A stretch of DNA of 64,000 nucleotides from Macrostomum lignano (lineage: Eukaryota). Under the pieces are notes generated by a model. It ran no database searches. It saw only the letters and a program-made list of their open reading frames with translations, and was not told the DNA's origin. Of the stretch, positions 23,483 to 55,055 are shown in pieces; position 1 is the stretch's first letter; every line of letters starts with the position of its first letter. The position numbers and the translations under genes were made by a program. The DNA lies in contig NIVC01003425.1 of assembly GCA_002269645.1 (NCBI GenBank), forward strand, positions 91,208 through 155,207, written 5' to 3'.

Positions 23483-26400
23483 GAGAAATTAATGCATACA
23501 AAATACGTTAGAAGATTATAAGTTATATATTCTTACAACCTGTTAAAACCCACGGATTTTGAACCCTGTGGCGGCCAGGCTGTACGCGACCGGCAGCACC
23601 AGTGCAGCCATACTGGAAACCCCCCAACCTCTGTCTAGCTGAGGTGGGGTGGGTGCGCACCAAGCTAGCCGGCTCGCTAAGCCGGGGGGGGGGGGGTTGG
23701 CGTAGCCTATCACACGCCACGCCACCTTTTCGCACCTCCCTACTAGGCCCCTCAATCTCGCGCTGTTTGTAAATATTAATATACGCGCAAAGCAGCACAA
23801 AATATTCGCTGCCAAATAAATATTATTGAATTAATTAAGGCCCTCCGCCTCATTGGTGCCCATGCAGCTTGACGCCCATGCAGCGTGGAATGCTGGGCCT
23901 ACGTGGTCGGCCCTGTGCGGTCCTGGCAGCCAACCGCCTTGGCCGACTTGGCAGCCCAGCAGCACCGCAGCCCAGCAACCACAGCAGTAGCAGCAACAAT
24001 CAGCCCAGTCAGCCCGCCCCCTGGTAGCTCCGGGGTCTCGCCTTTCGGGCCCCGTTTGGACCAACCACCGCCACACGCTGCAGCTCATTCTAGGTTAGCA
24101 CCGCTGCTGCTTGCCTAACATCCCCAGCCTCTGTGCAGGAGCCTCGACCCGGCTTACGACCGGCAACTGACTGTCGCGATTGCCTCTGGTGTGGTCCGCC
24201 CTACTCTCTTATCATGGATAAATCATCTATGATCCATGATCCATTGATAAATCCTGCATGTTCATGGTATTTTCATCCATGGATTTTTAAAACTTTCCAT
24301 GGTAAAATCATCCATGTCAGGGAGTTCATACGGGAAAATAAATAACTAAGCTTATAAAAAATTTCAGGCTATTTTATGTATATCTAATAAAGTTTTAAAT
24401 ATATTTAATAAAAGCGAAATTGTAAATACAAAAAATAGTTTAATAAATTTGTTAAAATCTTCACCTACAAATTGCTTTGAATATATTACCAGCAATTTTG
24501 TTGGCCATTTTGTTTCGGTTTAGTTAATTACGGACTTAACTTCCCATAAACATAAATTACTAGGCCTATTTTTCCTTTCTAAGAGGACTCTGTCACTCTT
24601 GCATGTTGTCATCATTTCATTATGTGTCACTATGTGCTATGTTTATGTTTATGTTTTTTCTTAGCTATATACTTCCAGTTCCACTTTTGGTAGCTAGTTT
24701 TAAAATTCGGTGGCTTGTAAGGTTTTTTGACATGCTAATTTTGATCTTCACTCCTTCAGTGAAAATTGTATTTGTAGATATATTAGAAAATAGAAACCCT
24801 ATTATATATTATATTTGGGATGCAAAGATAACCTATAGGGGTTAGATGTATATTTTTGAATGATATTTTGCTGCATTTTTATAATGATAGGTTGGCCTAA
24901 CCAAAGCCAAAGGCCTAGTCTAAAGTGGCATCCTAGACCTAGGCCATAGCCTAATGATAAAAATCACATGGTAGGCTGACAGTTTCAAAATAATAAAAAA
25001 TAATAGTATATTATGGTAATTGGTACTTAATTTCGAGACCTTTCATGTCCTTTGTATCTAATATACAGTCTATAATCAAAACTAGACTAGACTAGGCCCA
25101 ATTAGGCCTAATATTGTCTACTTTGTATCAGAAAATCCACAATGGCACAACTTTATAATTATAGGCCTATATATAGGGCCTAGGCCTTATATTATAATTT
25201 TTATTTAAAATCATAGGGGCCTAGGGTCCCTACATTAAATTTTTTTTATATACAATTCTAATTGGTTTGTCATTGGCCTCTTGATTGATTCTTCAAACCT
25301 TATCTCCTTGTGAAACTTTTTCAGAACAAATTGTTATGGATGATATTGGATTAAGTGCATCTAATTCTAGGCCTCTTCGAAAGCAGACAAAAAGTACTTC
25401 TAAATTTGGAAATGACAATTCAGCATTGTTTTTCTGCTTTATTCTTCACAATGTTGGCCATGATGAGCAATATGTGACCATTGCATTTGGGTCTCCCTAT
25501 TGGCCAAGTACAATAACTAATGATGAAAAGTTGGAACTTGCACAAGTAAGATTTTAAGTTGGATTTATATGCATAATATTTTGTTATTGAGTACATGGTT
25601 TCTAAAACAAATTATTCCAACTACAAATGTAATATTACTTTATTAAATTATATTTTAGGGGACTAAAGTCTTTTTACGCATGTATGGCAAACTATTTTCT
25701 GCTACACTTGTGGCAAAAGGTAGTGAAAGGCAAATGGCTTCAACTATGAACCAACTTTCCAACTTGGTTAGTGAGGCTGAAAATACTGATTCATTGATTA
25801 GCCAAGCTATTGAGCTTTTTGCAATGAAAGATCCCCAAGCTGGCATTGCAAATGTAAGGACAATAAGGTCATCTAGTTCAAAGCAGGTTGCTTCAAGTTC
25901 TAGTTGTCATCAGCATGGACTACTTGACGAGCTTTATGAAGTGGATAGTGAAAGTGGCGAACCAAATTTGGCGATACCAGCTACTCAATCAATGGGTAAA
26001 ACTGCAATATATATGAACTATTAATTGTTTGCAATTTGTTTTTTTTGTTGTATTATTTGATTAATTATTATTTTTTAGAAAAAGCCATTTCTGCATTTGA
26101 GAGAGAGGCATCTTTGGTTGAAAATGAGCAAGCTCGTGCCACAGGCCTCTTGACTACTAAGCAACGGCAGATGGCTTGATTTTGGAGGTGAGGTGGGTGT
26201 CAACCCTCCTCGCCTCTCATTGGCTGGCGCCCCGATCACTAGGTGATCGATACCCGTATCGATATCGGCGCTCGGCGCGCGCGCGCCGCAGGCGCGTGGC
26301 GCCAAGCGCCGTCCAGCCGCAGGCGACCCTCCCCAGCCACCGGCGACCCTCCCCAGCCGCAGGCGCACCTACCGATATGTATGCCCACCCTACCGATATG

Positions 26401-27716
26401 TACCCCGATATGTACACCCTCCCGAGCCGCAGGCGCACCCTCCCGAGCCGTAGGCGCCCATGCCGCAGACGCCCATGCCGCAGGCACCCCGAGTGTACAC
26501 TCTACCGAGCCGCAGGCACCCCGAGTGTACACTCTACCGATATGTACACTCTACCACTCTCCCGATATGTAGTCAACGATATTAGGCTAGTGAAAACTAC
26601 TTATAGTAGGTGAAATTGAGTATATTTACATAAAAATGTAGATAAAACATATTGGTAGGTGAATAATGACGCATAATACATATTGGAGCATATGAGCAGC
26701 AAAAACACACAATGTAGGTGTATGGGCAGAAATAGACAAAGCAGGTACTGTAGGCGCTACATAGGTGGAAATACACACACAGCAGGTGCATACATACACA
26801 CAATGTAGGTGCAAATTGAGTATAATACAGGAAAATTACATAGCATATAATGTAGGCGCATTTTAAACAATACATTTTGCATATTAACCCGCAGGCACAA
26901 ATTTCAGTGCATAGGATAAAATACACACACTGGAAGTTAAGTATAATACAACATATGTATGCAAAATTAAGCATATAATGTAGGTGCAAAGTAAAATATC
27001 CAGCCCAGGATATTCGAGACACGCCCCCAGAGTCAGGGCCGGGGGATCCCAATGTACAGTGCGGGCGGAGTAACAGAGAAATTCCTCCCCAGGGCCGGGG
27101 GATCCCAAGTACAGTGCGGTCAGAGAGGAGTAACATAGAGAAATTCCTCCCCAGGGCCGGGGGATCCCAAGTACAGTTCAGGCAGAGAGCATTCCAATCC
27201 TCCCCAAATGGGGGGGTTATCAAAGACCCCTCACATTGCACAGGGCGGGCAGAATAACAGACCGCATACAAATAGGGGTTTTAGCGGATCCCAAGTACAG
27301 TGCGCTCCATGGTGTTAAATGAGGAAGGATCCCGCCCCAATGTACATTGGAGGTAGAGTAACAGACCGCATACAAAGAGAATTCCAGTCAAACTTTACCG
27401 CAGCTCCCACCCCAAATGAGGGTTTTAGTGGATCCCCAGAGGGTAGCTCTCCAAGTTGAGGGATCCCCCCAGTGTGTTGCGAGGCCCAAGTACAGTGCAT
27501 GCAGAGAGTAACAGAGTACAAAGAGAAATTCCCTTATCAGTCAAACTCGAGCGCGATCTTCAGCCAGGGCAGTCTCCTCCTCATCAGCGCTCTCGAAACA
27601 TCTGTCAAAGTAAAAATATTCAATGTAGACAGATTATATGTAATTTATATACGATTTATATGAAATTAAGCTTACCAAAAATCGGGTTCGCGCTGTACGG
27701 ATACGGCACGCCTCAA

Positions 27717-28214
27717 TTAGCAACCCTCGTCAAACAGATTTCCCCAAGGGTAGGGTTTGATGCTGTCAAGGCAGTCCTGCAGATTGTCCTCTGTCTTGAC
27801 TCGCTTGGCTGGAGGGGGTGCCTCAGGTGCCGGCTTGAAGAGCTTGTCCAAACGGGCGGCAAACATCCGGCGCCACAGTTCAGGCGTGAATTCGATCGTG
27901 TAGCGCCAATTAAACTTTGGGTCCTGATTGAGCCAATTGCGCAGCAAACGGATCCTCCCTCGCGAAGCTTCAACTGCCTTGAAATTGCCCAACAGGACCC
28001 GCTTGTTCACGTGAAGGCGGGCAGCAGCCTCCAGGTCAGGGCGCGCAGCTTCGAGCTTCTTCCACTCTGGCTCGGCCAAGTAGATTGCAGGGAAGCCGTC
28101 CTTCCACACTCCGGCCTCGTTGGTGTAGAGACGCCGAATTTCAATCAAGTTGTGTTCAGTTTCAAATGTGGGCTTCCGCGCCACAAAGTTTTCGTATAGA
28201 GAGATAGAAGACAT
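27717..28214 (-). CDS. Tandem PC4-like (ssDNA-binding) protein, 165 aa
   Basis: LIEIRRLYTNEAGVWKDGFPAIYLAEPEWKKL..PDLEAAAR matches the PC4 pattern [36 protein letters not shown]. A second degenerate unit RIRLLRNWLNQD..TIEFTPELW follows, then NLS-like PPPAKRVK and an acidic tail. Confidence 0.7.
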   Translation of the reverse strand: MSSISLYENFVARKPTFETEHNLIEIRRLYTNEAGVWKDGFPAIYLAEPEWKKLEAARPDLEAAARLHVNKRVLLGNFKAVEASRGRIRLLRNWLNQDPKFNWRYTIEFTPELWRRMFAARLDKLFKPAPEAPPPAKRVKTEDNLQDCLDSIKPYPWGNLFDEGC

Positions 28215-28456
28215 GATTTAGCAGCAGCAGCAGCAGAGAGCTCTCTGACAGCCGTGCAGCGCCTTATATACCCCCGGGTGGAGGGTGGGGTGGGTGATGA
28301 TTTTGGGGTGATTTTTGATGATTTTGGTTGGTTTTTGGCGATTTATCCAATAACAGGCGAGCTGAGCAGATTTTTTAGTATATATACAGACCCCCAGAGC
28401 CAGGGTAGAGAGATAAATCCTTCTCTCTCCGCTCTCTCACGCTCTCTGTTTGCAAA
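28215..28456. promoter_or_regulatory. Putative bidirectional promoter of the Polinton-like element
   Basis: 242 bp between head-to-head ATGs. TATATAA on the minus strand at 28264-28270 and TATATATA on the plus strand at ~28378-28385, each followed by a pyrimidine-rich leader. Confidence 0.5.
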
Positions 28457-31400
28457 ATGGCTAAACGCAGCGCCGCAGCAACTGCTTTTCTGGCTGACAA
28501 GAGGCAACGTCTTTATGGTAAGTTTTAATTAATTTCTGTCTAGACTGTAGTTGCTAGGGTGGGGGTAGGGGCTGAGCAGCAGCAGCAGCTGCAGGGTCTG
28601 TGGGACCGCAGAGTAAACAACAAAGACTGCTGCGACAGCTGCAGGGGTCTAGACTGGAGTTGCTAGGGTGGGGTGCTGCGGCAGGGTCTGTAACAGAGAG
28701 TTGCAGGGGAGGGCTAGACAAGTTTCAGCCGGGTGTGTGCTGATAAGAAATTGCTGCTAGGGGGGTGTTGTCCAGACAGGCTGCAGCTGGGGTGCAAATT
28801 GCTGCGACAGAGAGTTGCAGGGGTGAGTAAACAAAGACTGGGGTGGGGGTTGTCTAGACAGGGAGGGGTGTGCTGATAAGAAATTGCTGCAAAAACAGAC
28901 AGTTGCTAGGGTGCTGCGGCAGATAAGAAATTGCTGCAGAATCGTTGGGGCAGGCTAGACAAGTTACAGCCAGGTGGGGGCAGAGAGTTGCTGGGACTGT
29001 GTAGCGCGGGGACAGACTGATAAGAAATTGGCAGGGGCGCTACCCAGACAGGCTGCAGCTAGGTGCAAATTGCTGCGACAGAGAGTTGCAGGGGTGAGTA
29101 AACAAAGACTGCTGCGACAGGCTGCAGCGGGGGTGCAGATAAGAAATTGCAGAGAGTTGCTGCGGGGACAGCAGAGTAAACTCTGTTAAGAAATTGCTGG
29201 GGCTAGGGCGGGGAAACACGCTGGGGCCAGGAAAATGACAGATTCTTCTGGTTTTTTATCTCCTTGTGTTTTTTCAGACGCGTTTGTCCCGCCAACACAG
29301 CCGGAATCTGTTACCGGACCGGGTGAGTTATCCAGCCCCCCCATTTCCCACACAGACCCTAGCTGACTCACACTCCCCCATTCCCCCATGCAGGTTTTAC
29401 GGCTCGGCTGGATAATCAGCGTGACCTGCCCAAGTTTAGGGCAAAGGGTGTCGAGTATGTGGTGCATATTACCAACACCGAAGATTTGCGGGAGGTGTTT
29501 GCTGACATGCTCGAAGTTTTCAAGCAAGATTTGGCTGGTGATGACTTTATGGCCGCGAAATTCGAGAGCGACAATATGCTCAAAGCGGCCCACACTCCCC
29601 CGGTGCGTGCATCCCGCATGACGGCTGAATTGTTGTTTAAGCACATCAACAAGATTGTACAGTCGGATGCCACTGTCCTGACGGGCAACTTTTCTATCCG
29701 GTTGCTAAAGGCCTGGGTGCCTCGAGGTGGATGTGCTCTCGAGAACAAGCATCTAGAAGAGCGGCACGCCTTCTCCAAGCACTATGTCCGCATCACCAAC
29801 TCGGACAAGAGATGCCTGCTGCGCGCTCTGGTCGTGGCCTGCGCCTACCTGCAATTCGTGGCCAAGTCCATCACCAAGCAGGTGTGGCACACAATCAAGG
29901 CCAATTCGCCCACGCAGACTAAGCTGGTGGCTGAGCTACAAATCGAAGCTGGCCTCTACACGGTAAGTTTCTAGTATTTTTCCGATAAGAATTTTTACAC
30001 AGTATCGTGGAATACTAAAAGATATATTTTCTGATAAGAATTTTTACACAGTATCGGGAATACTAAAATTTTCTGATAAGATTTTTTACACAGTATCAGG
30101 GAATACTAAAAGAAATATTTTACCCTCCACACAGACTCTTCAAACCGTCTCGCAGGCTGGTCCTTTCGGGTTGGATGCACTGCCCGAAGCGATCCGTGCC
30201 CTGAACCGGCTGCATCCGGGGCGCGATTTTGGTGTACGAGTGTACAGGGCAGAGGAGGCCAACAGGTGCATCTTCAACCTGCCTGGCACCGAGATTCTGC
30301 ACCTGCACCTGGTCGAGCAGCACTTTAATGTGGTCACCAAGCTGCCTGCGTTTTTCGGCTCTGATCACTACTGCGCCAAGTGCGAGATGGCCTACGACTG
30401 CGCCAACGCCGAGCACAAGTGCGCTGACGCCTGCAGTACATGCAAGACTCCGGGCTCCAACTGTAAGGCAAACCGCGCATATGTAAGATGCCAGGATTGC
30501 GGGCTAAATTGCTATAATGCTCAGTGCCTAGAAAATCACAAGCGCAAGAATAAGGCGGGCAGATCGCGCTGTGATTCGGTCCACGTTTGCGGCACGTGTG
30601 GCTATCTAGAAGAACTAAAAGTAGGCCAGCCCCCTGAGCATCAGTGTGGTTATGCCAAGTGCCCAGTCTGCAAGCAGTACGACGAAACTGCCACCCACGA
30701 GTGCTTTGTCACCCCGCCCAAAGCCAAAGAGTCTAGCGCCCCGTATGTTTACTATGATTTCGAGACGTACGTGGACTCTGGCAAGCAGCACCGGGTACAC
30801 TTGGTTACGGCTGCCACCTCCTGCGAGGCGTGTCCCAAACTCTTCCCCAGGCCCCGCTGCAGCGTGTGCGGGGGACTACACAGCTCAGCCAATTGCATTG
30901 CGGGACGCGATTTGGCACTCGATTTCACGAGCTGTGCTCGCACAATGACTGTGCCTGTGGGATGCGAGAGTTTGTATCTGTCGGGCCGCACTCTATCGAT
31001 GCATTTTACTGCTGGCTGACTAGTGTGTTCAAGCAGGGGGCAATTGCTATTGCGCACAATGGCTCTGCGTATGACGCATTCCTCCTGCTCGGCGCCCTAC
31101 TCAACGGACTGGCCAAGAAGAAGCCGCAAGTGATCTTCCAGAACAGCCGCCTAATGTACATGAAGTGCGACAAGATCACCTTCAAGGACAGCCTCAATTT
31201 CATCCCTATTGGTCTGGCGCAATTCCCAAAGGCGCTTGGTTTGGGCACCCAACTGACCAAAGGAGATTTCCCGCACGTGTTTAACCAGCCTCAAAATTGG
31301 GGGTACGTCGGTCCCTACTGCTCAATTGATATGTACGGAGGAAAGAAAAACAAGCAGCATGACTCCATCGCTGACTGGCTGGCCAAGCAGGAGGGACAGG

Positions 31401-33495
31401 TGTTTAATTTCAATAAGGAGTACCTGGACTACTGCCTGCAGGACACGTTAATTTTGCGGGAAGGCTGTCTGAAATATACCCGCCTGATTAAGGACATTTG
31501 CGGACTGGACGCATTTGTCCAATCCAACACCATTGCGGGCTTGGCTATGGCTGTTTTCACCACCAAGTTTATGGAGCCCAACACTCTTGGGGTGATTTCC
31601 CGCCGGTCCGATGTACAGTCGCACAAGGCGCGGTGCTGGCTGGCACATTTAAATGCAACCGAGTTTGGCGGCCGGTTGCGGACAGCGGACTCGGGCGGCG
31701 AGGCTTTCGCCATGGGCCGTAAGGTCGACGGCTTCGACCCAGAGACCAGGACAGTGCTGCAGTTTCATGGCTGCTTCTTCCATGGCTGTCCCAAGTGCTT
31801 CCCCAACGGCGACGTGCTGCACCCGCTCAAGAACCAGCCAATGCGGGCGATTTATGAGGAGACTGAGCGCTTCACCCGGTTGCTCTCCACTGCATACAAT
31901 GTGCGTGTTCTGTGGGAGCACGATTATCAGGACGAGGGAGCGCCAGTCCAGCAGCCTATTCGCCTGGAGGATGCCCTGTTTGGCGGCCGTACCGAGGCTT
32001 TTGTCCCGCATGCCGAGGCCACCGAGACTGTAGAGCTGCGCTATCGGGATGTGGTAAGTTTGTACACTTGTACACACAGTTGACATGCGTTTGAGTTTAT
32101 CTTATCCTTATCCCCTAGGTGTCGCTCTACCCGACTGTCAACAAGTTTGACAAGTACCCTGTCGGGCACCCGGTTCACCACCCCGAGCCTCATCTACTGG
32201 ATGAGCTGCAGCTGGCCCGGTATTTTGGCATCGCCGAGGTGTCGATTCTGCCGCCAACCAATCTCCACATCCCGCTACTGCCCTCCAAGATTAACAAGAA
32301 GCTGGTTTTCGGCCTCTGCCGCGTCTGCATGGAGACCCAGTGCAGCAGCGAGTGTACACACACTGACGCTGAGAGAATGCTCCGCGGCACGTGGTCGACC
32401 CCAGAGCTCCACAAAGCCCTGCAGTTGGGTTACAAGCTGCAGTCAGTTCATGCCCTGGCCTATTGGACCGAGACTCGCACGGGCCTGTTTGCAGATTATG
32501 TAAACACCTTTTTGAAGCTCAAAGCCGAGTCTAGCGGTTCGCCGGGATGGCTGAGGACGCCAAGGCTGCCTACATGGCCAGCTTTTTCGAGCGCGAAGGC
32601 GTCCGGCTGGAAAAGGTGGAGGAGAATCCTGGCCTGCGCTTTGTTGCCAAGATTTTTCTAAACTCGTAAGTTTTTCTACTTGCAGTGGGGGCCATGTTTT
32701 TCTACTTACATAAAATTTATTTTTCCCCTGCAGGCTCTGGGGCAAGTTCTGCCAGCGCGACGACCTGACCTCCACAGAGATTGTGGACAGCTACGAGGCG
32801 TGGCTGCAGCGCCTGACAGACCCCTCGATCAAGGTCAAGTCGTGCGAGCCAATTGGGGAGAGCTTCATGATGCTCGAGTACAAGCCCCGATTTGGCGGTG
32901 CTGGCGAGCGGGCGTTCAAGTACGCCAATGTACCTATTGGCGTTTTCACCACCTCCCACGCCCGGCTGCGACTCTACGAGGCTCTGGAGGGTCTAGGAAC
33001 CCGCGTCATTTACGCCGATACCGATTCGTAAGTAATTTTTTCAACTGTCTCTGTCTCTCTTTCTCCCCTTAACACTTTTTATCCTTCTCCTCCTCCTCCC
33101 AGGGTCGTATACCGCTGCTCCCGGGCGAGTACGAGCCTCCGGGCGGTTCGAGTTTGGGGCAGTGGACTGACGAGGTACCTGCTGGCTGCCGCATGGTACA
33201 GTTCACCACGGGAGGCCCCAAGCTCTACCGGTACGTGGTGGAGAAGCCCGACAGGTCGCTGTACTCGGTGCTCAAGTGCAAGGGCATCAGAGTCACGCCC
33301 GAGATTTCCGAGCGCGAGGACGAGCTGCAGGAAATTCTGCGCCACGGGGGCTCTGTCCGCCTGCCCCAGGCCCAGTTCAGGCGCGATAAGGCCAGCTGTA
33401 CAATCCGGACCCTGGAGATGGACAAGACTTTCCAGCGCGTAATGACTAAGAGGGTGTATGGGGCCGCTAGCCGCCCGTATGGCTTTCGTGAGTGA
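28457..33495 (+). CDS. pPolB: Protein-primed family B DNA polymerase, 7 exons, ~1,270 aa after correcting three 1-nt deletions
   Basis: Exons 28457-28517, 29278-29322, 29394-29962, 30156 (or 30135)-32053, 32119-32665, 32734-33027, 33103-33495, all GT-AG. Motifs: NSDKRCLLRAL and EQHFNV (OTU-like Cys/His), Cys-rich region, ExoI YYDFET, ExoII HNGSAYD, ExoIII YCLQD, Vsr-like QFHGCFFHGC insert, motif A DV|VSLYP, B K..LNS|LWGKF, C YADTDS|V, C-terminal KRVY..SRPYGF. Frameshifts near 30925, 32545 and 33120. Confidence 0.9.
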
Positions 33496-33929
33496 GTGAA
33501 AGATAAGGATCTGTCTTTACACGCCTGGGATTCCCCTATGTGCCCACTTGGGATCCCTTGACTCTTGGGGTTGAAAAATGGTTTTACGCCCGCACTGTAC
33601 TTAGGGGTCCTTACTCATTTGACACCTCCTGTACATTAAGCGGGATTCCTTCAAGTGTTAAAACTCCCATTTGACACCTATTCCCTCGGGGCGGTTTGTG
33701 GCCCAGCGGTCCGCCTCTTGGAGTAGAACTCCTGACATGAACTTGCTGCGCTGATTAGCGTACTGATAGCGCAATCGAAATACGTCCATTTTTCTAGCCC
33801 ACTTGTGGGTACATTTACGTTGAAAGATGTTGATGCGTTCAATAACGTTGTAATAATAATAAGTCTCCACATCTTAGGGCGGCGAAACCTCCCTTTTGCT
33901 CATCTATTTTAGACAATAATGAGACTCTG

Positions 33930-34020
33930 ACCCCGGGAGGTTAATGGCCGAGCGGGTAACCCTGGCGGTATAAAACAGGGTGACCCAGGCTCGATTCCTG
34001 GCTGGGGGCTGTAGACTTTT
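33930..34020 (+). ncRNA. Candidate Pol III tRNA-like small RNA inside the Polinton-like element
   Basis: A box TGGCCGAGCGG (33945-33955), B box GGCTCGATTCC (33988-33998), T-arm ccagg/ctcgatt/cctgg, stem accctg/cagggt, closing stem ccccgg/ctgggg, TTTT at 34017-34020. Not a canonical tRNA. Confidence 0.45.
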
Positions 34021-36153
34021 CCGGCCCCTGCGTCCCTATTGGGTTTAATTGTGTTGAAAGTATATCGGGTCATTAGGCCGTGAACCCCCCCTTTTGGGAT
34101 TTCCCCGAACCGCTTTTGTTTAATATTTATGCACCTGCGGGTTAGACAATATTTACTCTTTAGTCGGTGCGACATTATTTACGCGTCTGTTGCACCTGGG
34201 CGTTTGCCTATAATCTGATTATACATGCGTGCCTGTATTATACAACTACACCTTATGCATGCCTTGTAAACCTGCTTTATACATTAATCCGATATGTATC
34301 GAAAGTACACTTTGTAAACCTGCTGTGTGTATTTCCACCTATGTAGCGTCTACAGTACCTGCTTTGTCTATTTCTGCCCATACACCTACATTGTGTGTTT
34401 TTGCTGCTCATATGCTCCAATATGTACATTTTAATATGCAATATGCGTCATTATTCACCTACCAATATGTTTTATCTACATTTTTATGTAAATATACTCA
34501 ATTTCACCTACTATAAGTAGTTTTCACTAGCCTAATATCGTTGACTACATATCGGGAGAGTGGTAGAGTGTACATATCGGTAGAGTGTACACTCGGGGTG
34601 CCTGCGGCTCGGTAGAGTGTACACTCGGGGTGCCTGCGGCATGGGCGTCTGCGGCATGGGCGCCTACGGCTCGGGAGGGTGCGCCTGCGGCTCGGGAGGG
34701 TGTACATATCGGGGTACATATCGGTAGGGTGGGCATACATATCGGTAGGTGCGCCTGCGGCTGGGGAGGGTCGCCGGTGGCTGGGGAGGGTCGCCTGCGG
34801 CTGGACGGCGCTTGGCGCCACGCGCCTGCGGCGCGCGCGCGCCGAGCGCCGATATCGATACGGGTATCGATCACCTAGTGATCGGGGCGCCAGCCAATGA
34901 GAGGCGAGGAGGGTTGACACCCACCTCACCTCCAAAATCAAGCCATCTGCCGTTGCTTAGTAGTCTCTTGGAATCAAGTTTGTATATTCTATTACACCTA
35001 ATTGAAAACCAAATACCAAATGAGTCAATATTTTTGTAGCAATAAGCCTTTTTTATCACTAGGTGCAATTCAAGAAGTGCAACCCCTCCGAGGGGTACAG
35101 ATAGTAAACAGTGAATCGGATGCAACAATGAAAGGTATAATTTTATTTTTTTAATATGATACAATCACATTATTAAAAATCAAAATCACCATATTTTTAT
35201 ATATGAGCATATATCTTACTCTAGATCTAAAACTGTTCATTCAATCCGAGTTGCTTTCTCTTGAGAAGCGTCTTGCTGCAAGGATATGCCGACTTTTAAA
35301 AAAGGATGACAACTTTGGTGGAATGCTAACAATTAAAGAATACCAAAATGAGGTATGTCAGTTTTTTCTTAGCATCAGCAGCATCACGTCTGTAGTATAA
35401 AAGTTCTACTATATAATAACATTTTTTAGGAATTTAGGTGCATTGATGGTTCCCTAGCTGAGCTGTCTTCAATTCTTTGCAACGATCCTAAGGTGTTCCT
35501 CCGAAGGTATATCAAGCTGCGATTTGGCGAAGGCTACTTGCTTGAGCATATAATCGATTCATCCTGTGGTGCTCGCAGTTCCCGAAGGCCTGCTCCATCT
35601 GAGCATGTGACAGAGTTTCAACGTAAATATATATATATAATTTTTTCACAGTTTTGTGCAATTTTTTTATTATAAAGCAATTTAGGCTAATTAATGCTAA
35701 ATGATCTGAATCCAATACTTGGGATATTTTCTAAAAAAACACATTTAGGTCTGAGATAAAAGAAATTGAGGAAAAATAGTTCTAAAGTTCAATACATCCC
35801 ATTGACCTATTTAATGATTAGCATCATAAATCAACTTCCTTTTAAATTTAGCCTATTTCTACTATAAACACAGTACACAATGTCTATTGTAAAAATATTT
35901 TACTATACTCGTGAATTTTCAGGTTTGCTTCAATTGTGCTATCGAACATCTGGCTACGACTTCCACGAAATCTGGAAGTCTGTACGAGACCATCTCAATC
36001 AGCTGGCCAGGGAGGAGACACGGGCGAGAAAGCGAACTTCAACTGCTGCTTCTGGACCCGAGTCAGGGGATTCCATTTCCCGCTCAAGGCGAATGGGACC
36101 GTGAATTGCGGAAAAAATTCTAGTAACTTTTGAATATTTGAATTGCTATTTTT

Positions 36154-38454
36154 ATGTCTAGTAAATCAGAATCTGAGCACTCTCTTTCTACTAATTACTC
36201 AGCCTACTCTTGTCAGGCGATTTCTTCTCCCTCAAATAGTTTTTCTACAAGTAATAGGAGTTCAATTTCAAGCGAAGCCGGTGTAACGCACTCGCACAGC
36301 TGTCCTGACGCTGTGGAAACTTTTATTGGTGAAAACAATGCTGTGCCTGTGCTTGAGGAGAGTTCAGATAGCTTAGCGAATTTGGCTTCCATCTCAGATC
36401 CCAGTGTGCAGGCGGCTCTGATTTTTCAGTGGGCAATTACTTCCGGAGTTTCAGAGGCTGCTCTTGATAGACTCCTGAAGCTACTTTCTATTTTTAGTAG
36501 AGATTCTCTAGCTCTTCCAAATAGCGTCAAGTTGCTCAAATCATTGATTCAAGATACTTGCCCTCTTGATGATAGTGACGTGTCTGAATTTGGCTTTTGC
36601 CCAGAATGCAAAAGCCAGTGTCAGGTTCATTCCCCAAAGTCAAAGGTTGCTGTGACACAGCTCAATATTGTTCCACAGCTGCGGACTATCTTAAGCAGCC
36701 ACACTTCAACTATTCTGCAGTATGAGCAAGAATTGCAAAAGGATAAAAACACAGACGTTTTGAATTCCAAAATAGTTAAAGAACAAGGCTTAAGCCTATC
36801 TTCTGGCAAGTCGCTTCACTTGCATCTTCTAATCTCAGCTGATGGCGCCAATTTTTTTGAATCTGTTCAGAGTAGCTTTTGGCCATTTCAGGCTCAACTT
36901 CTAAACCTTCCTGTTTACATCCGTCAACGCTTTGCAAATTTAATTCTAATTGCTCTTGTTTCATCGAAGGCAGTCCCGCATTTCCAGTCTTTTCTGTCTG
37001 AAATTATGAACAATTTGCCAAAACAGTTTATATTCTCGGAATACACCGTTCATGTCCATTACACACTCTTTGTTTGTGACTTGCCCGCTCTTGCTAAGCT
37101 CTTCTGCATTCACCAGTACAATGGTGCGTTTAGCTGTCCTAGGTGCTTGCACCCAGGTGAGAGCTTTAAAGTATCCGAGAAAGGTAAAAACTGGATCTTC
37201 CGCTATGGTGAAGGCTACTTGTTTCCTTTGAGAAACCCATCTTCCCATCTTGAACACTGTCGGCTCGCACAAATTCGAAATCGGCCTGTTTTTGGCGTAA
37301 AGATGCGCAGTTGCTTGTTAGACTATGTTCCGTTTCCCAGCTGCAATCCTATTGACAGTTTACACTGCTTTTTCGAAGGCCACACCAAGTATCTACTAGA
37401 AGAGCTGTCATTACCTGCAAACAGGCGCGAGTTGTATTTTTGCTCAGCTAATTGCATGGATTTCATATCTAATTGTATTCGTCAATCTATAACTCCTTCT
37501 AGCATCACAATCAACACAAATTTTAAAGGCTTTTCAGATTGGAAAGCAAAGCATTTTAAAAACTTTGCGCTATACTTTCTTCTTCCTACGTTTTTGCAGA
37601 GAATTTCGCATTTTCCATTGAAACTGCTGTTAACTAATTTAGTTCTTATTTATCACATGTTGTATAGCCCCCAATCAAATAAGACTGATATCGAAAAGCT
37701 ATGCAAAGCTTTTATCTCCAATGCTCAGCAAATATTCGGACCGAAAGTACTCCGCCTTAATTTCCACCTGCTTTTGCATATGGCTGAACAGTACGAATTG
37801 TACGGACCTGTATTTAATTATTCTATGTTCGCATTTGAGAGCTCCATTGGCATGTTCAAAAAGTTCTTATGCGGAACTGTGTCATTTGGCCCACAGCTTG
37901 TTCGCAAGTTTTTGTTTCAAAAGTTGCTACATCACTACTTTTCTTGTGTTAAGGACTCTATTGTAGTGGATGCAGTTAACTCTATATCTTTAGAGCCATC
38001 CAGGCCACATGGTATTCTTCGAAACTCACTTGCTTATTTTAATGGACATTTTTTCTCGACAAGCTCAGCTTGTGCGTCGAAAAATTCTAACCATCTTTGC
38101 CAATTGAAGTCCGGCGAAATCTGCACTATTGCAGAGTTCCTCGAGCCTAATACTATTCGAGTGCAAATTTTGGATCCCATTGGTTCGCTGTTTGATTTTG
38201 TTTTACGAGTACCAGCAGCAACTTTCCCCATCGATTTACTTAATTGGAAAGCATTGCTGGAATCCATGTTCAAAAAGTCTTCGACATTCAATTTTGTATT
38301 GATATCCCTGTCTAATGCGCCCAGATCGGCCAGACGCGAACGTATAGTTAATTTTTCAGAGGTCGATCGACCCTGCATCGCTGTTCCAGTAGAATCGTTC
38401 AGCAAAGACTGTTATTGCGCTGTGCCATTGTTCAAAGAGTTTGAACATGATTAA
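36154..38454 (+). CDS. CMC/EnSpm-type (Transposase_21-like) transposase, 766 aa, uninterrupted
   Basis: ISADGANFFESVQSSFWPFQAQLLNLPVYIR, CDLPALAK..QYNGAFSCPRC and DSLHCFFEGH motifs; single open ORF inside the TIRs. Confidence 0.85.
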   Translation: MSSKSESEHSLSTNYSAYSCQAISSPSNSFSTSNRSSISSEAGVTHSHSCPDAVETFIGENNAVPVLEESSDSLANLASISDPSVQAALIFQWAITSGVSEAALDRLLKLLSIFSRDSLALPNSVKLLKSLIQDTCPLDDSDVSEFGFCPECKSQCQVHSPKSKVAVTQLNIVPQLRTILSSHTSTILQYEQELQKDKNTDVLNSKIVKEQGLSLSSGKSLHLHLLISADGANFFESVQSSFWPFQAQLLNLPVYIRQRFANLILIALVSSKAVPHFQSFLSEIMNNLPKQFIFSEYTVHVHYTLFVCDLPALAKLFCIHQYNGAFSCPRCLHPGESFKVSEKGKNWIFRYGEGYLFPLRNPSSHLEHCRLAQIRNRPVFGVKMRSCLLDYVPFPSCNPIDSLHCFFEGHTKYLLEELSLPANRRELYFCSANCMDFISNCIRQSITPSSITINTNFKGFSDWKAKHFKNFALYFLLPTFLQRISHFPLKLLLTNLVLIYHMLYSPQSNKTDIEKLCKAFISNAQQIFGPKVLRLNFHLLLHMAEQYELYGPVFNYSMFAFESSIGMFKKFLCGTVSFGPQLVRKFLFQKLLHHYFSCVKDSIVVDAVNSISLEPSRPHGILRNSLAYFNGHFFSTSSACASKNSNHLCQLKSGEICTIAEFLEPNTIRVQILDPIGSLFDFVLRVPAATFPIDLLNWKALLESMFKKSSTFNFVLISLSNAPRSARRERIVNFSEVDRPCIAVPVESFSKDCYCAVPLFKEFEHD

Positions 38455-50995: not shown

Positions 50996-51555
50996 TGGAC
51001 TTGGACAAGTGGGAGTGGGGTCAAGGACACGAGGACACTAAACTAAATAAAACAGTTCAGTTGACAATAAATCTGGCAATTGTAGAAAAGCAATTGTAGC
51101 TTTTGTATCTTCACTACTTCAGTAGCTGGAATGCAGTAAAAAGAGCAGGGGTCAGAAAGGTAAATAATAATTATAATATGTAATTATAAATGGACTAAAA
51201 TGACTAACCAGTTTGACTTTCACTGTCTCAGTTACAAGTACAAGATAGTATGAACCCTAGGCCTAGCCTGGCATAGGCCAGCCAGGACTATATATATAGC
51301 TATGAGACTGTATAACTATATGTTATAGTATAAGTATAATATAATTAACATATATTATACATATAATTATATATAATGAATAATTGTTTCAACTTAACTT
51401 CTTGAGAGTTGACTAAAGTCCCCTGAGCCTAAATGACTATGTATGATATGACTATGAGTCTTGCACGAGTTATGACCATGCCTGAAGCCTGAGCCTAAAT
51501 CTAGTAAATGATCTTTAACTTGTTTACTTTTAAGGTTAACTTAAATTTAAAATTA

Positions 51556-53309
51556 CGAGGGATGTTCCATAAGTACTTATACTTTTGCATGCTGCTCAGG
51601 AACTACGCAACCAATCATTGTAAGTTTTATGTCGCTGGAAAGCGGCTTTACTCATCTTTAATCTGTCGCCAAAATCATTTCGTTCTGTCAACTATGTCAA
51701 AAGTTACAACAAAAAACGTAGTCAAAGGTCACCCATAGACTTACAAGAAATTTAAAGAGCAACAACTACAATGGCAAGCATCAAAACAGAGGCGCGTTGT
51801 TGATGACAGAAAGTTTGACTTCTTTGTCACTCATCCTCAGTCGGTACCGACACCTTCTCAACGTAGTTTCCACCGGAGTTGATGCACTTGGTCCACCTGT
51901 TAAACATGCTTTTGATGGCTTCTGCGTACAGCTGTCGGGGGATGACATACAGCAGAATTCTGCGGACTTCCTCCTCGATCTGGTTCCTGGTCTCGTACAC
52001 GCGTCCTTTCAGATGGCGCTTCAACTCTGGAAATAAAGCAAAGTCTGCTGGTGCCAGGTCTGGAGAGTAAGGAGGGTGAGGTAGAAGATGGAGCTTCAGC
52101 TTGCTGATTGCCTCGACTGTCTTTTGTGCTGTATGAGGCCTTGCATTGTCATGATGAAGAATGAAAGGTCTGGGATTTTCACGACGCTTGTTCTGGATGT
52201 CATGATGCAGCTTTGTTAGCGTTTCAACGTAGCGCTCAGAGTTTATTGTAGTGTTTGGCTCCAAAAACTCGACAGTTAGAGGACCATTGCAGTCGAAAAA
52301 CAGAGACAGCATGATCTTCTTTCCATGTGCGTCCCTTTGAGCTTTTACCGGAGGATCAGAGCCCTTCAGCATCCAGACCTGGGAATCACGTTTCGTTGGT
52401 GGATCAAAATGGGGAATCCAGGTTTCATCTCCAGTGACTATCATTCGATGGAAGAGATCCCAACCACCGTATTCTTCCATCATCCGAATATTGGCCTGAC
52501 AAATCTGCTGCCTCTGCAGTCTCAAGTCCGAGGTGAGTAGGCGTGGCACCCAACGAGCAGTCAGCTTGACAAAGTCCATGCGCGACAAGCAGCGATGCAC
52601 AGTTGTGCTCGGCGTGTCCAGTCTATCTGCAATCTGTCGAATCGTTAGCCGACAATCTTCGTCCAGCAGATCAAGAATTCGATCGGTGAGAGCATCAGAG
52701 CCTGATGTGCAGGGGCGGCCCGACCTCGGCAAATCAGCAACATTGGTCCTTCCTGCTTCGAACTGCTCAACCCAGTTGTAGACGGTCATCCTGCTCACCG
52801 CATTAGCTCCATGAATGTTGCATAAATCCGCATAAATCTCTGATCGCTTTTTTCCGAGTTTCCAGAGGGTAAAAATTGCAGCGCGCTGTCCTTCCCTTGA
52901 GTTCACATCCATGGTGATGCAGCAGCAGCCAAGGTGGTGAAACTTTACAAGATTAAGATGCTGTGATCTTAAGATTAAGATGCTGTGAAAGCTTAGGCCA
53001 GTATTTTCCATAGACGAAAAGGGTGTGGCATTCGCTTATGAAGCAAAAAAGAATGCATTATGTAGAATCCGAAATAACTCTGCGTGCTGAACTTTGAAGT
53101 TTTGATTTTGAAAATTTCTTGTAAGTCTATGGGTGACCTTTGACTACGTTTTTTGTTGTAACTTTTGACATAGTTGACAGAACGAAATGATTTTGGCGAC
53201 AGATTAAAGATGAGTAAAGCCGCTTTCTAGCGACATAAAACTTACAATGATTGGTTGCGTAGTTCCTGAGCAGCATGCAAAAGTATAAGTACTTATGGAA
53301 CATCCCTCG
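51556..53309 (-). mobile_element. Mariner element with 198-bp TIRs
   Basis: TA TSD (51554-51555 / 53310-53311); TIRs 51556-51753 and 53112-53309 beginning CGAGGGATG, one visible mismatch. Confidence 0.95.
51827..52912 (-). CDS. Mariner DD34D transposase, ~361 aa, intact
   Basis: WVPRLL, IVTGDETW, HHDNARPH, then 34 residues to the D of YSPDLAPAD. Likely start MDVNSREG at 52912. Confidence 0.95.
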   Translation of the reverse strand: MDVNSREGQRAAIFTLWKLGKKRSEIYADLCNIHGANAVSRMTVYNWVEQFEAGRTNVADLPRSGRPCTSGSDALTDRILDLLDEDCRLTIRQIADRLDTPSTTVHRCLSRMDFVKLTARWVPRLLTSDLRLQRQQICQANIRMMEEYGGWDLFHRMIVTGDETWIPHFDPPTKRDSQVWMLKGSDPPVKAQRDAHGKKIMLSLFFDCNGPLTVEFLEPNTTINSERYVETLTKLHHDIQNKRRENPRPFILHHDNARPHTAQKTVEAISKLKLHLLPHPPYSPDLAPADFALFPELKRHLKGRVYETRNQIEEEVRRILLYVIPRQLYAEAIKSMFNRWTKCINSGGNYVEKVSVPTEDE

Positions 53310-55055
53310 TAGTATACACTTTTGCAAAATAATTGTGTCTTGTGAACTGATGGACAAAATCAAACAGAAAATGTGCTGCAGATATGCCAAAAAGCTAAAA
53401 AACAGTGATAAAAAGGCAACAAAAAAGTAGAAAATGTTTTCTATAACCTACATATAAAGAAAGAAGGTACACACAGTTGTAGAAACAACTGTTTGTCATA
53501 TAAATGTAAAGTTTCACTGCTGAAACCAAGATATTTTTCAACTTGTAGACAAAAAAGTTCTAAAAACTTGCCCGGATGAGCCAAAAAGCTAAAATAAGTG
53601 ACAAAAATAGAGATAAAAAGTTTTTAAAAAATGTTCCACCCTAAATAGAAACTCCAAAATTTATCTATGAGTACAAACCACTGTTTACCTTTAATTTGCA
53701 AAGTCTCACTACAAAAGGCAGGATAGTTTCTAACTTACTGACAAAAGAATTAAAAAATCATGCTCCGGCATATGCCATTTTTTTCAACTTTTGTAACAAC
53801 ATGTAAGCATATTTTTCATATCCAACCATGTAATGACAGAAAAAGCATGGCAAAAGAAGCAAAACAAGTAGATCTTTGAAATAAGACCAAAAGTAGCAAA
53901 TTTGGACAAAAAATGACTATTTTACACTCTACTAAAGTACCTTTTTTCAAAACTGATATCAAAAAGGGAACAAGCCCATAGTGTAATTTTTATATCTAAA
54001 AAAACGCAAATTTTGAATCTTTAAATAGCCATAACTTTTTTATCACTTGACCAATCTTAACAATCTTGGCCATTTTGGAAATCACTCAAGACCCTCTATC
54101 ATGCTAGACAAGAAAAAATAGGATACCATAAACTTTAGAAAACTCACTGGACAGCCTATTATTTTTGCGCATAAGTTCATACGATATTTTTTTAACTTTG
54201 TCATTGTCAAAATGTTTTTTTTCTGCAGGCGCAACATACCGAACGTTTTATCTCTAATTTTACTTTTCAGTAACTAGCCGATCACCGTAACTATTCAGAA
54301 GTTCCAGTGCAACTTTGTAAGCAGCAAGAATTGCTAATTAATGGCATCTTGGTAACTGCAAATATTAATGTATACAATAAATATGCTTGATTATAAAAAT
54401 TATATTAATTAATTTCCATTCAAATTTCCAATTTTTTATTGAGCAGATCAACCTCTCAGCCCAGGTCAATCTAGATTTTTTCAAGACAATTTACTGGCAG
54501 AATATCGATAATTTTTTATCTTTAACCAATTCTTTTCTCTCACTTTCCAGATTTCTGTCCAATCAGTGCACCAACTTTTGGAGTGACATCAATTAAATTG
54601 GATTTTCAGGATTTTTAAAGAAATTTTCTGGTTTAACAAATATTTAATTTTAAAATTGATCATGGTTTATATGTAAATGTGGATCTCTATAAATATAAAT
54701 TAATTAAAGTACATAGAACTTTGCAATTGATCTGTTTTTTTAAATGTAATGTTGCACCTCGACAATTGAAAAAGGAATTTTGACAGTGACAGCCAGTCTA
54801 AATGTAATAAACTAAAGTTAACAAATTTCATCTAGACAAGTGGCTCCAAGCATCATAGTCATTAGAATTAGCAATTACAAGACATTGTATTTTTAATAAT
54901 TGTCACTTGACTCATTTCAAAAGGTTAACAATTTTTGCCAAGTTTTGCTGCTGATGAAATTCCATCATTGTCCATGCAGTATGGACTCAGAATTAAATTA
55001 GGCAGTCTCGCATTGCACGTATCAGTATTGTAGCTAGATCAAAAAATGGATAGAT

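Follow-up and report, generated by a model that had tools for sequence, protein, structure and literature searches.

The window analyzed here is a 64,000-nucleotide stretch of a Macrostomum lignano contig (NIVC01003425.1), and it carries an element of 8,812 bp (26153–34964) with terminal inverted repeats (TIRs) of ~630 bp. The first 32 bp of the left TIR (26153–26779, forward strand) are common to a partner type of element that encodes integrase and capsid proteins, and the right TIR, read from the sequence, lies at 34324–34964 on the reverse strand. The element is flanked by a 6-bp target-site duplication, the same hexamer being found at 26147–26152 and 34965–34970. Its gene content is limited to a protein-primed family B DNA polymerase (pPolB) gene, assigned from PF03175 and homologues, and a divergent ORF of 165 amino acids on the reverse strand (27717–28214) for a candidate PC4-like ssDNA-binding protein. 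The latter assignment is lead-level: the ORF has an Atlas score of 0.88 to clusters with PF02229 on 21–78% of their members, and its homologues of 29–32% identity adjoin integrases of other Polintons in the genome. TATA-like words facing both ways are present in the region between the two genes (28214–28457). The polymerase type, the long TIRs and the 6-bp duplication are those of Polintons, while integrase, capsid, ATPase and protease genes are absent between the TIRs of the window as judged from the sequence and Pfam searches, and pPolB has six introns where a canonical Polinton has intronless core genes. Because integrase and capsid are absent, the element is not a canonical single-element Polinton. 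Elsewhere in the window, 36142–38454 holds an ORF for a CACTA-like transposase (DUF1258, Transposase_21), and 51543–53322 is occupied by a mariner element with 238-bp TIRs.

The pPolB gene is read on the forward strand from an ATG at 28457. Exon 1 (28457–28517) and the following intron 1 (28518–29277; 760 nt, repeat-rich) are placed from loose contig ends in two sequencing runs, in a poorly conserved N-terminal region. Intron 2 (29323–29393) is 71 nt long, and intron 3 (29963–30134; 172 nt) occupies a site common to both pPolB families of this genome. Introns 1 and 3 are rich in TGATAAG repeats, which we take to be GATA-factor-like sites and possible host-type enhancers. Exon 4 (30135–32053; 1,919 nt; PF03175, E=2e-15) contains zinc fingers, the exonuclease domain, a Vsr-like insert and a TxGR-type motif, and is free of introns, in agreement with a preliminary description of this DNA. 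The insert, at approximately 31600–31930, is a predicted nuclease with DG and FHGCFFHGC motifs and a PHROG endonuclease match (E=0.002); no PDB match was found for it. A pPolB2 with the same Vsr-like insert has been described (10.1101/2023.08.22.554363). The remaining exons are exon 5 (32119–32665; PF03175, E=3e-12), exon 6 (32734–33027; supported by sequence and contigs) and exon 7, which runs to the stop codon (33103–33495). The window copy has three frame breaks, near 30936, near 32543 in exon 5 and near 33119 in exon 7.

The catalytic motifs A, B and C of this polymerase are each split by one GT-AG intron. Intron 4 (32054–32118; 65 nt, phase 0) splits motif A at RDV^VSLYP, where the caret marks the intron; intron 5 (32666–32733; 68 nt, phase 2) and intron 6 (33028–33102; 75 nt, phase 2) split a Ser codon as TC^G in motif B (LNS^LWGKF) and motif C (YADTDS^VVY), respectively. 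The coordinates, lengths, phases and the twofold TC^G interruption had been proposed in the preliminary description and all hold on re-reading the sequence. All three introns have GTAAGT donors and pyrimidine-rich YAG acceptors, like U2-type introns. Furthermore, they are removed with the frame restored in contigs assembled from four runs of four studies, which are probably RNA, none being on record as such. In these contigs intron 4 and intron 5 are skipped in 4/4 runs, and intron 6 is skipped by joints in three runs with a loose end in the fourth, so that the exon junctions suggested earlier as a check (32053/32119, 32665/32734 and 33027/33103) are all present. Introns 2 and 3 are likewise skipped, the joint of intron 2 being found in three of the four runs. 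The preliminary interpretation is supported in part: the introns are spliced, and they sit in an element that is chromosomally integrated and multi-copy. If left unspliced, introns 5 and 6 give an in-frame TAA immediately and intron 4 a stop within nine codons, as expected for a regulatory gate in which retained introns truncate the active site and splicing licenses the polymerase. Such a gate is hardly credible: any phase-2 intron beginning with GTAA would do the same, an upstream intron would gate equally well, and the contigs show all three introns removed.

The genome contains many copies of this gene. A DNA search recovered copies 91–100% identical to the window gene (40 of 116 candidates scored), UniRef proteins labelled Macrostomum lignano are 96–100% identical to the window exon, and a Pfam search revealed a second pPolB family with ~64–70% protein identity to the first. 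A spliced aligner that recovered introns 3–6 of the window was applied to 41 genomic copies, consisting of 29 first-family and 12 second-family loci. At the same site and in the same phase, intron A is found in 29/29 and 11/12, intron B in 29/29 and 10/12, and intron C in 28/29 and 12/12 copies of the first and second families, respectively; the missing calls are shifted calls or one truncated copy, and no intron-free copy was found among the 41, which is the genomic control for the contig joints. The two families are separated by dS ~2.3 (saturated) and dN ~0.28. Since the introns occupy the same sites in two long-diverged families, they are older than the family split and, by this comparison, are old. 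The spliced polymerase is judged to be kept under purifying selection, with dN/dS of 0.05–0.12 for the two families and ~0.05–0.17 within the first family, and no frame break or stop in 9/26 first-family and 4/8 second-family copies among those fully aligned. The A, B and C introns of both families represent one lineage and not replicates, and those in A and C are single events. Several other pPolB lineages in the genome read through the motif region without an intron; for example, a VSR-type relic (L080), 35–39% identical, has an uninterrupted motif region. More diverged intron-bearing families were considered and rejected: the low-identity UniRef entries that suggested them are badly modelled genes belonging to these two families. 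In one second-family copy (L153/L154; G000 C1300), long ACT arrays flank and continue the terminal repeat, as if extended by slippage.

The terminal sequence leads to the partner type. The genome has 35 occurrences of the element's terminal 15-mer, from which 13 pairs 8.4–10.5 kb apart can be formed, and 6-bp duplications flank all 12 pairs other than that of the window, two couples of which look like duplicated sites. Seven pairs enclose a polymerase, four are non-coding palindromes and two are of the integrase/capsid type. The latter carry genes for Fic, rve integrase, penton-like, core-like, DJR capsid, protease-like and ATPase-like proteins and no polymerase, and share with the polymerase type the first 32 bp and nothing else. 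Partner elements (L109/L110, L107/L108; L143–L150) are 10.2–10.5 kb long with an additional weak TBP-like ORF; they form two families (integrases 81% identical) that mirror the two polymerase families, the Fic gene belonging to the first. Their ORFs are uninterrupted, with no GT-AG joint on the partner in four runs, and no nuclease was found on this segment. A second, diverged element pair also shares end motifs between its two types, with 6-bp duplications in 3/4 partner-type and 3/6 polymerase-type stretches. In the hit tables, polymerase and partner types occur together on one contig only, ~44 kb apart. With complementary gene sets and matching termini, we read the window element, on sequence grounds, as the polymerase-only half of a split (bipartite) Polinton, whereas the preliminary description had treated the gene without seeing a polymerase-only segment. 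Complementation in trans is inferred because integrase-less copies carry 6-bp duplications. Division into a replication segment with a spliced gene and an integrase/capsid segment free of introns would mean that Polintons can be segmented. The palindromes (L103–L106) are near-perfect, 8.4–9 kb long, with the same termini and 6-bp duplications and no polymerase or PC4-like match, and are probably non-autonomous passengers.

The preliminary description had also proposed that proximity of the introns to catalytic residues be tested. The probability that at least three of the six introns lie at sites as conserved as these is 0.035, 0.002 and 0.006 for three window sizes of the conservation measure with 31 homologues, and ~0.02, 0.013 and 0.07 when worked by hand from the ranks of a larger alignment. 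For introns in any of eight canonical motifs P is 0.002, and for motifs A, B and C, a selection made in hindsight, it is 2.4e-5. Thus, the clustering exceeds chance modestly (P about 0.002–0.07 depending on the method, for a pattern picked post hoc), and the placement of the three introns is probably non-random. The other three introns of the window sit in the least conserved region, and among them intron 3 is kept in both families at a conservation rank of ~0.8.

Introns in more distant relatives bear on the cause. Of 126 related loci aligned, 115 scored above 150; from the metagenomes the 80 highest-ranked of 471 relatives were taken, an order biased towards genes without introns. A call was kept only if it broke the frame or contained a stop and had a strong donor, while in-frame read-through calls or those with weak splice signals were dropped as protein insertions, together with the doubtful L277. 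Three intron-bearing lineages were left after this filtering. The sole intron of L200/L235 and that of L208/L250 both lie in motif B, respectively 5 nt and 8 nt downstream from the position of intron 5 in the window, whereas L272/276/278/280 have five introns, none of them in A, B or C. The mapping of homologues that had been called for gave a clustering in motif B for the first two lineages and introns elsewhere for the third. Introns of these relatives are 63–90 nt long, and their B sites fall in Ser(AGY), Trp and Gly codons. In this out-of-sample set 2 of 7 introns are in the A/B/C cores (P=0.008, or 0.12 if the introns of L200/L235 and L208/L250 are one event). In a PolB of giant-virus type, a GT-AG intron of 57 nt is present at YGDT^DS (2/47 matches, one lineage, no control pattern), and a search of viral_contigs for a motif-B-plus-donor pattern gave 0 matches. 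The loci L272, L276, L278 and L280, a eukaryote-type pPolB with five shared spliceosomal introns, are filed in a bacterial genome bin.

These positions can be compared with a retention process, in which introns are gained anywhere and lost through imprecise deletion, which variable regions tolerate and which is lethal in catalytic motifs, so that survivors collect there. Strong purifying selection on pPolB would suit such a process, and Swithers et al. cite the deletion phase as one cause of the conserved-site bias of homing elements (PMC2814812); two of the five introns in L272/276/278/280 rank fairly high in conservation (0.06–0.32). Under this process, however, introns should be spread over ~280 conserved codons, and their recurrence within 8 nt at motif B is not expected. 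In both window families intron 3 is retained in spite of its low conservation, the other three introns of L272/276/278/280 persist at rank 0.27–0.67, and spliceosomal introns generally are described as lacking such a bias (PMC2814812). Retention is rather unlikely to be the explanation. Of the two causes named in the preliminary description, a motif-targeting agent thus fits better than persistence at constrained sites, with B introns within 8 nt and others persisting at weakly conserved sites.

More bases of motif B are implicated by protein ends. ORF-based surveys miss or fragment these spliced polymerases, and the fragments themselves were surveyed by their protein ends, with the 120 best-ranked among 768 short proteins called from ORFs. 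Homology is lost in motif B in 55 of these top 120. Donor-like tails are found at the Gly codon in 45 (one clade), at Trp in phase 1 in two, at Ser in phase 2 in four and at Trp in phase 2 in one, and point to three or four bases in motif B. A second set, of acceptor-like heads, agrees (22, 1 and 5–6 of 120). A few fragment heads suggest introns three codons before and three codons after the motif-A Asp. A census of motif-C fragments found nothing, but was biased against them, its query extending beyond motif C and thereby preferring fragments that contain it. Fragments broken at the B site used in the window share 55–70% identity with intron-free proteins on different branches. In the lineage of L200, P0125, P0194 and P0234, alleles with and without the intron are 73–79% identical. 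In one clade (P0227, P0229, P0230, P0239, P0250, P0255, P0260 and P0263), the translated motif-B intron, at the level of protein ends, presumably resembles a tRNA-Tyr gene from both the donor and the acceptor side, to judge by its tRNA loops.

In a tree of 168 columns, Ser-phase-2 rows occur in five places among intron-free proteins, and the well-supported branches force one origin only. In a tree of 739 columns, the window families group with the lineage without motif introns and an intron-free relic (SH-aLRT 96), and L200 and L208 lie away from them. A single clade of all B-intron bearers is not rejected by the AU test (p=0.53), the constrained tree being slightly better. Repeated independent gain in motif B is tentatively favoured because different bases are hit; in a Daphnia study, sites within 10 bases were counted as parallel gains (PMC4202315). 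The contrary reading is chance with shared history: lucky gains in A, B and C in one lineage, with the other B introns slid from one old intron or placed by a G-rich proto-splice bias (AG^GT, G^G). It draws on the AU result for one B-intron clade, on A and C being single events in the DNA data, on the modest P values for a pattern picked after the fact, and on the Ser(AGY), Trp and Gly codons of the relatives' B sites. It requires, however, slides of 5 and 8 nt and many precise losses among interspersed intron-free relatives, and in the window the exons preceding the B and C introns have a C as their last base (TC^G), which is no proto-splice context. The B introns share no sequence with one another (z 0.9–2.0), though old introns need not. 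Overall, chance is an unlikely account.

Could the introns be relics of self-splicing elements, that is, group I/II introns or inteins turned spliceosomal? We take intein sites I and II of PolB to be motifs A and B. The preliminary description had held that inteins target the same three motifs, and archaeal PolB inteins are indeed described at three conserved active-site positions, one of them YGD^TDS (PMC549080); the window's motif-C intron matches the motif and not the site, lying 8 nt downstream. The window introns are short, AT-rich and mutually unrelated, and a covariance-model search with Rfam gave 0 matches at E<=0.1 in 26100–35000, by which the group I/II reading was rejected. Such an origin is very improbable. 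An introner origin was also rejected, since the three introns have no mutual similarity (pairwise z 0.5–1.7).

Our tentative first choice, held with somewhat less than even confidence, is that homing-type nucleases placed or fixed the A, B and C introns by cutting conserved motif DNA of intron-free rivals. Nucleases of co-resident Polintons would target motif DNA, which has no freedom to drift; they could be the Vsr-like insert of the polymerase itself, a nuclease encoded on its own or the product of an ORF that an intron formerly housed. Repair of the break would sometimes add DNA, and within a catalytic motif such an insertion would survive only if the host spliceosome removes it exactly. 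The spliceable allele, resisting cutting, would spread by gene conversion until fixed, with any ORF lost later. The polymerase segment would be transcribed in the nucleus and borrow integrase and capsid in trans. A more specific version, possible and distinctly more doubtful, is that animal Polintons are at a nuclease war over polymerase active-site DNA, with the introns as recurrent resistance alleles homing in trans via the Vsr-like domain.

Several reports make nuclease-guided placement conceivable. Conserved sites are preferred by homing elements but usually not by spliceosomal introns (PMC2814812); spliceosomal introns of mirusviruses can carry genes for homing nucleases, of which 16 are VSR-like (PMC12768974); a family of homing nucleases is formed by Vsr-like domains (PMC2677866); and introns can be gained by break repair, with parallel gains within 10 bases (PMC4202315). 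Against it, no ORF is present in any motif intron seen as DNA (57–144 nt; copies in the window families are <150 nt), and no avoided 4–6-mer is re-formed at the A, B or C junctions. The AU result, the five non-motif introns of L272/276/278/280, the three window introns in the least conserved region and the absence of a nuclease match on the partner segment also count against it. Shielding of short restriction sites was rejected as a candidate: no avoided word is re-formed, the shared RAYTC^G context shows no depletion, and GGNCC occurs commonly within these elements.

The origin and siting of new spliceosomal introns is a long-open question, and a once intron-free family with introns at several bases of one motif offers a countable test of targeted gain versus selective retention. 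If true, the nuclease war would provide a site-directed way for animals to gain spliceosomal introns, seen here on half of a segmented Polinton, and would carry the idea of homing introns over from mirusviruses of protists to elements of animals. The observation itself is real, old and probably non-random; its cause is offered as a hypothesis. In the literature searched (mainly open papers), neither motif-located pPolB introns nor a bipartite Polinton is described, and PMC11161782, PMC12220804, PMC2777158 and 10.64898/2026.10.13.758929 added no account of either feature.

Among known systems, the closest are Polintons/Mavericks (adintoviruses) with VSR-type pPolB2, which likewise combine a PF03175 polymerase containing a Vsr-like insert with long TIRs and 6-bp duplications (10.1101/2023.08.22.554363; PMC8502044). 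The partner element has the Polinton complement of rve integrase, DJR capsid, penton-, protease- and ATPase-like genes. Unlike in Polintons, the genes for replication are on one TIR-bound element and those for integrase and virion on another, and pPolB has six spliceosomal introns; the preliminary description had taken pPolB to be normally a single ORF, which accords with intact vertebrate Mavericks being described as intronless (PMC8097293). Bidnaviruses, with two segments, matching termini and a Polinton-related pPolB, are the nearest segmented relatives (PMC8502044). They are ssDNA viruses and parvovirus-like, whereas both halves of the present element integrate with 6-bp duplications and one keeps a DJR capsid module.

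As for the introns, mirusvirus shintrons are similar in being GT-AG introns, ~80 nt long, that interrupt the core genes of a nuclear DNA virus, with a proposed spread by homing nucleases including VSR-like ones (PMC12768974, whose main text does not contain the word "polinton"). Unlike shintrons, the window introns are in an animal host and sit in polymerase catalytic motifs instead of virion genes, and they are not shintrons by definition because no endonuclease ORF is found inside them. Dinoflagellate Polinton-like-virus introners, spliceosomal introns in endogenous Polinton-like elements, are the nearest published introns in such viruses (PMC12166617); they are young repeated sequences, whereas the window introns are old and mutually unrelated. 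PolB inteins as well as group I introns are similarly inserted in the most constrained active-site motifs (PMC549080; PMC2814812), whereas the window introns are removed by the host spliceosome and that in motif C is offset from the intein site. The element works like a Polinton replication module, and its introns are placed like shintrons or inteins.
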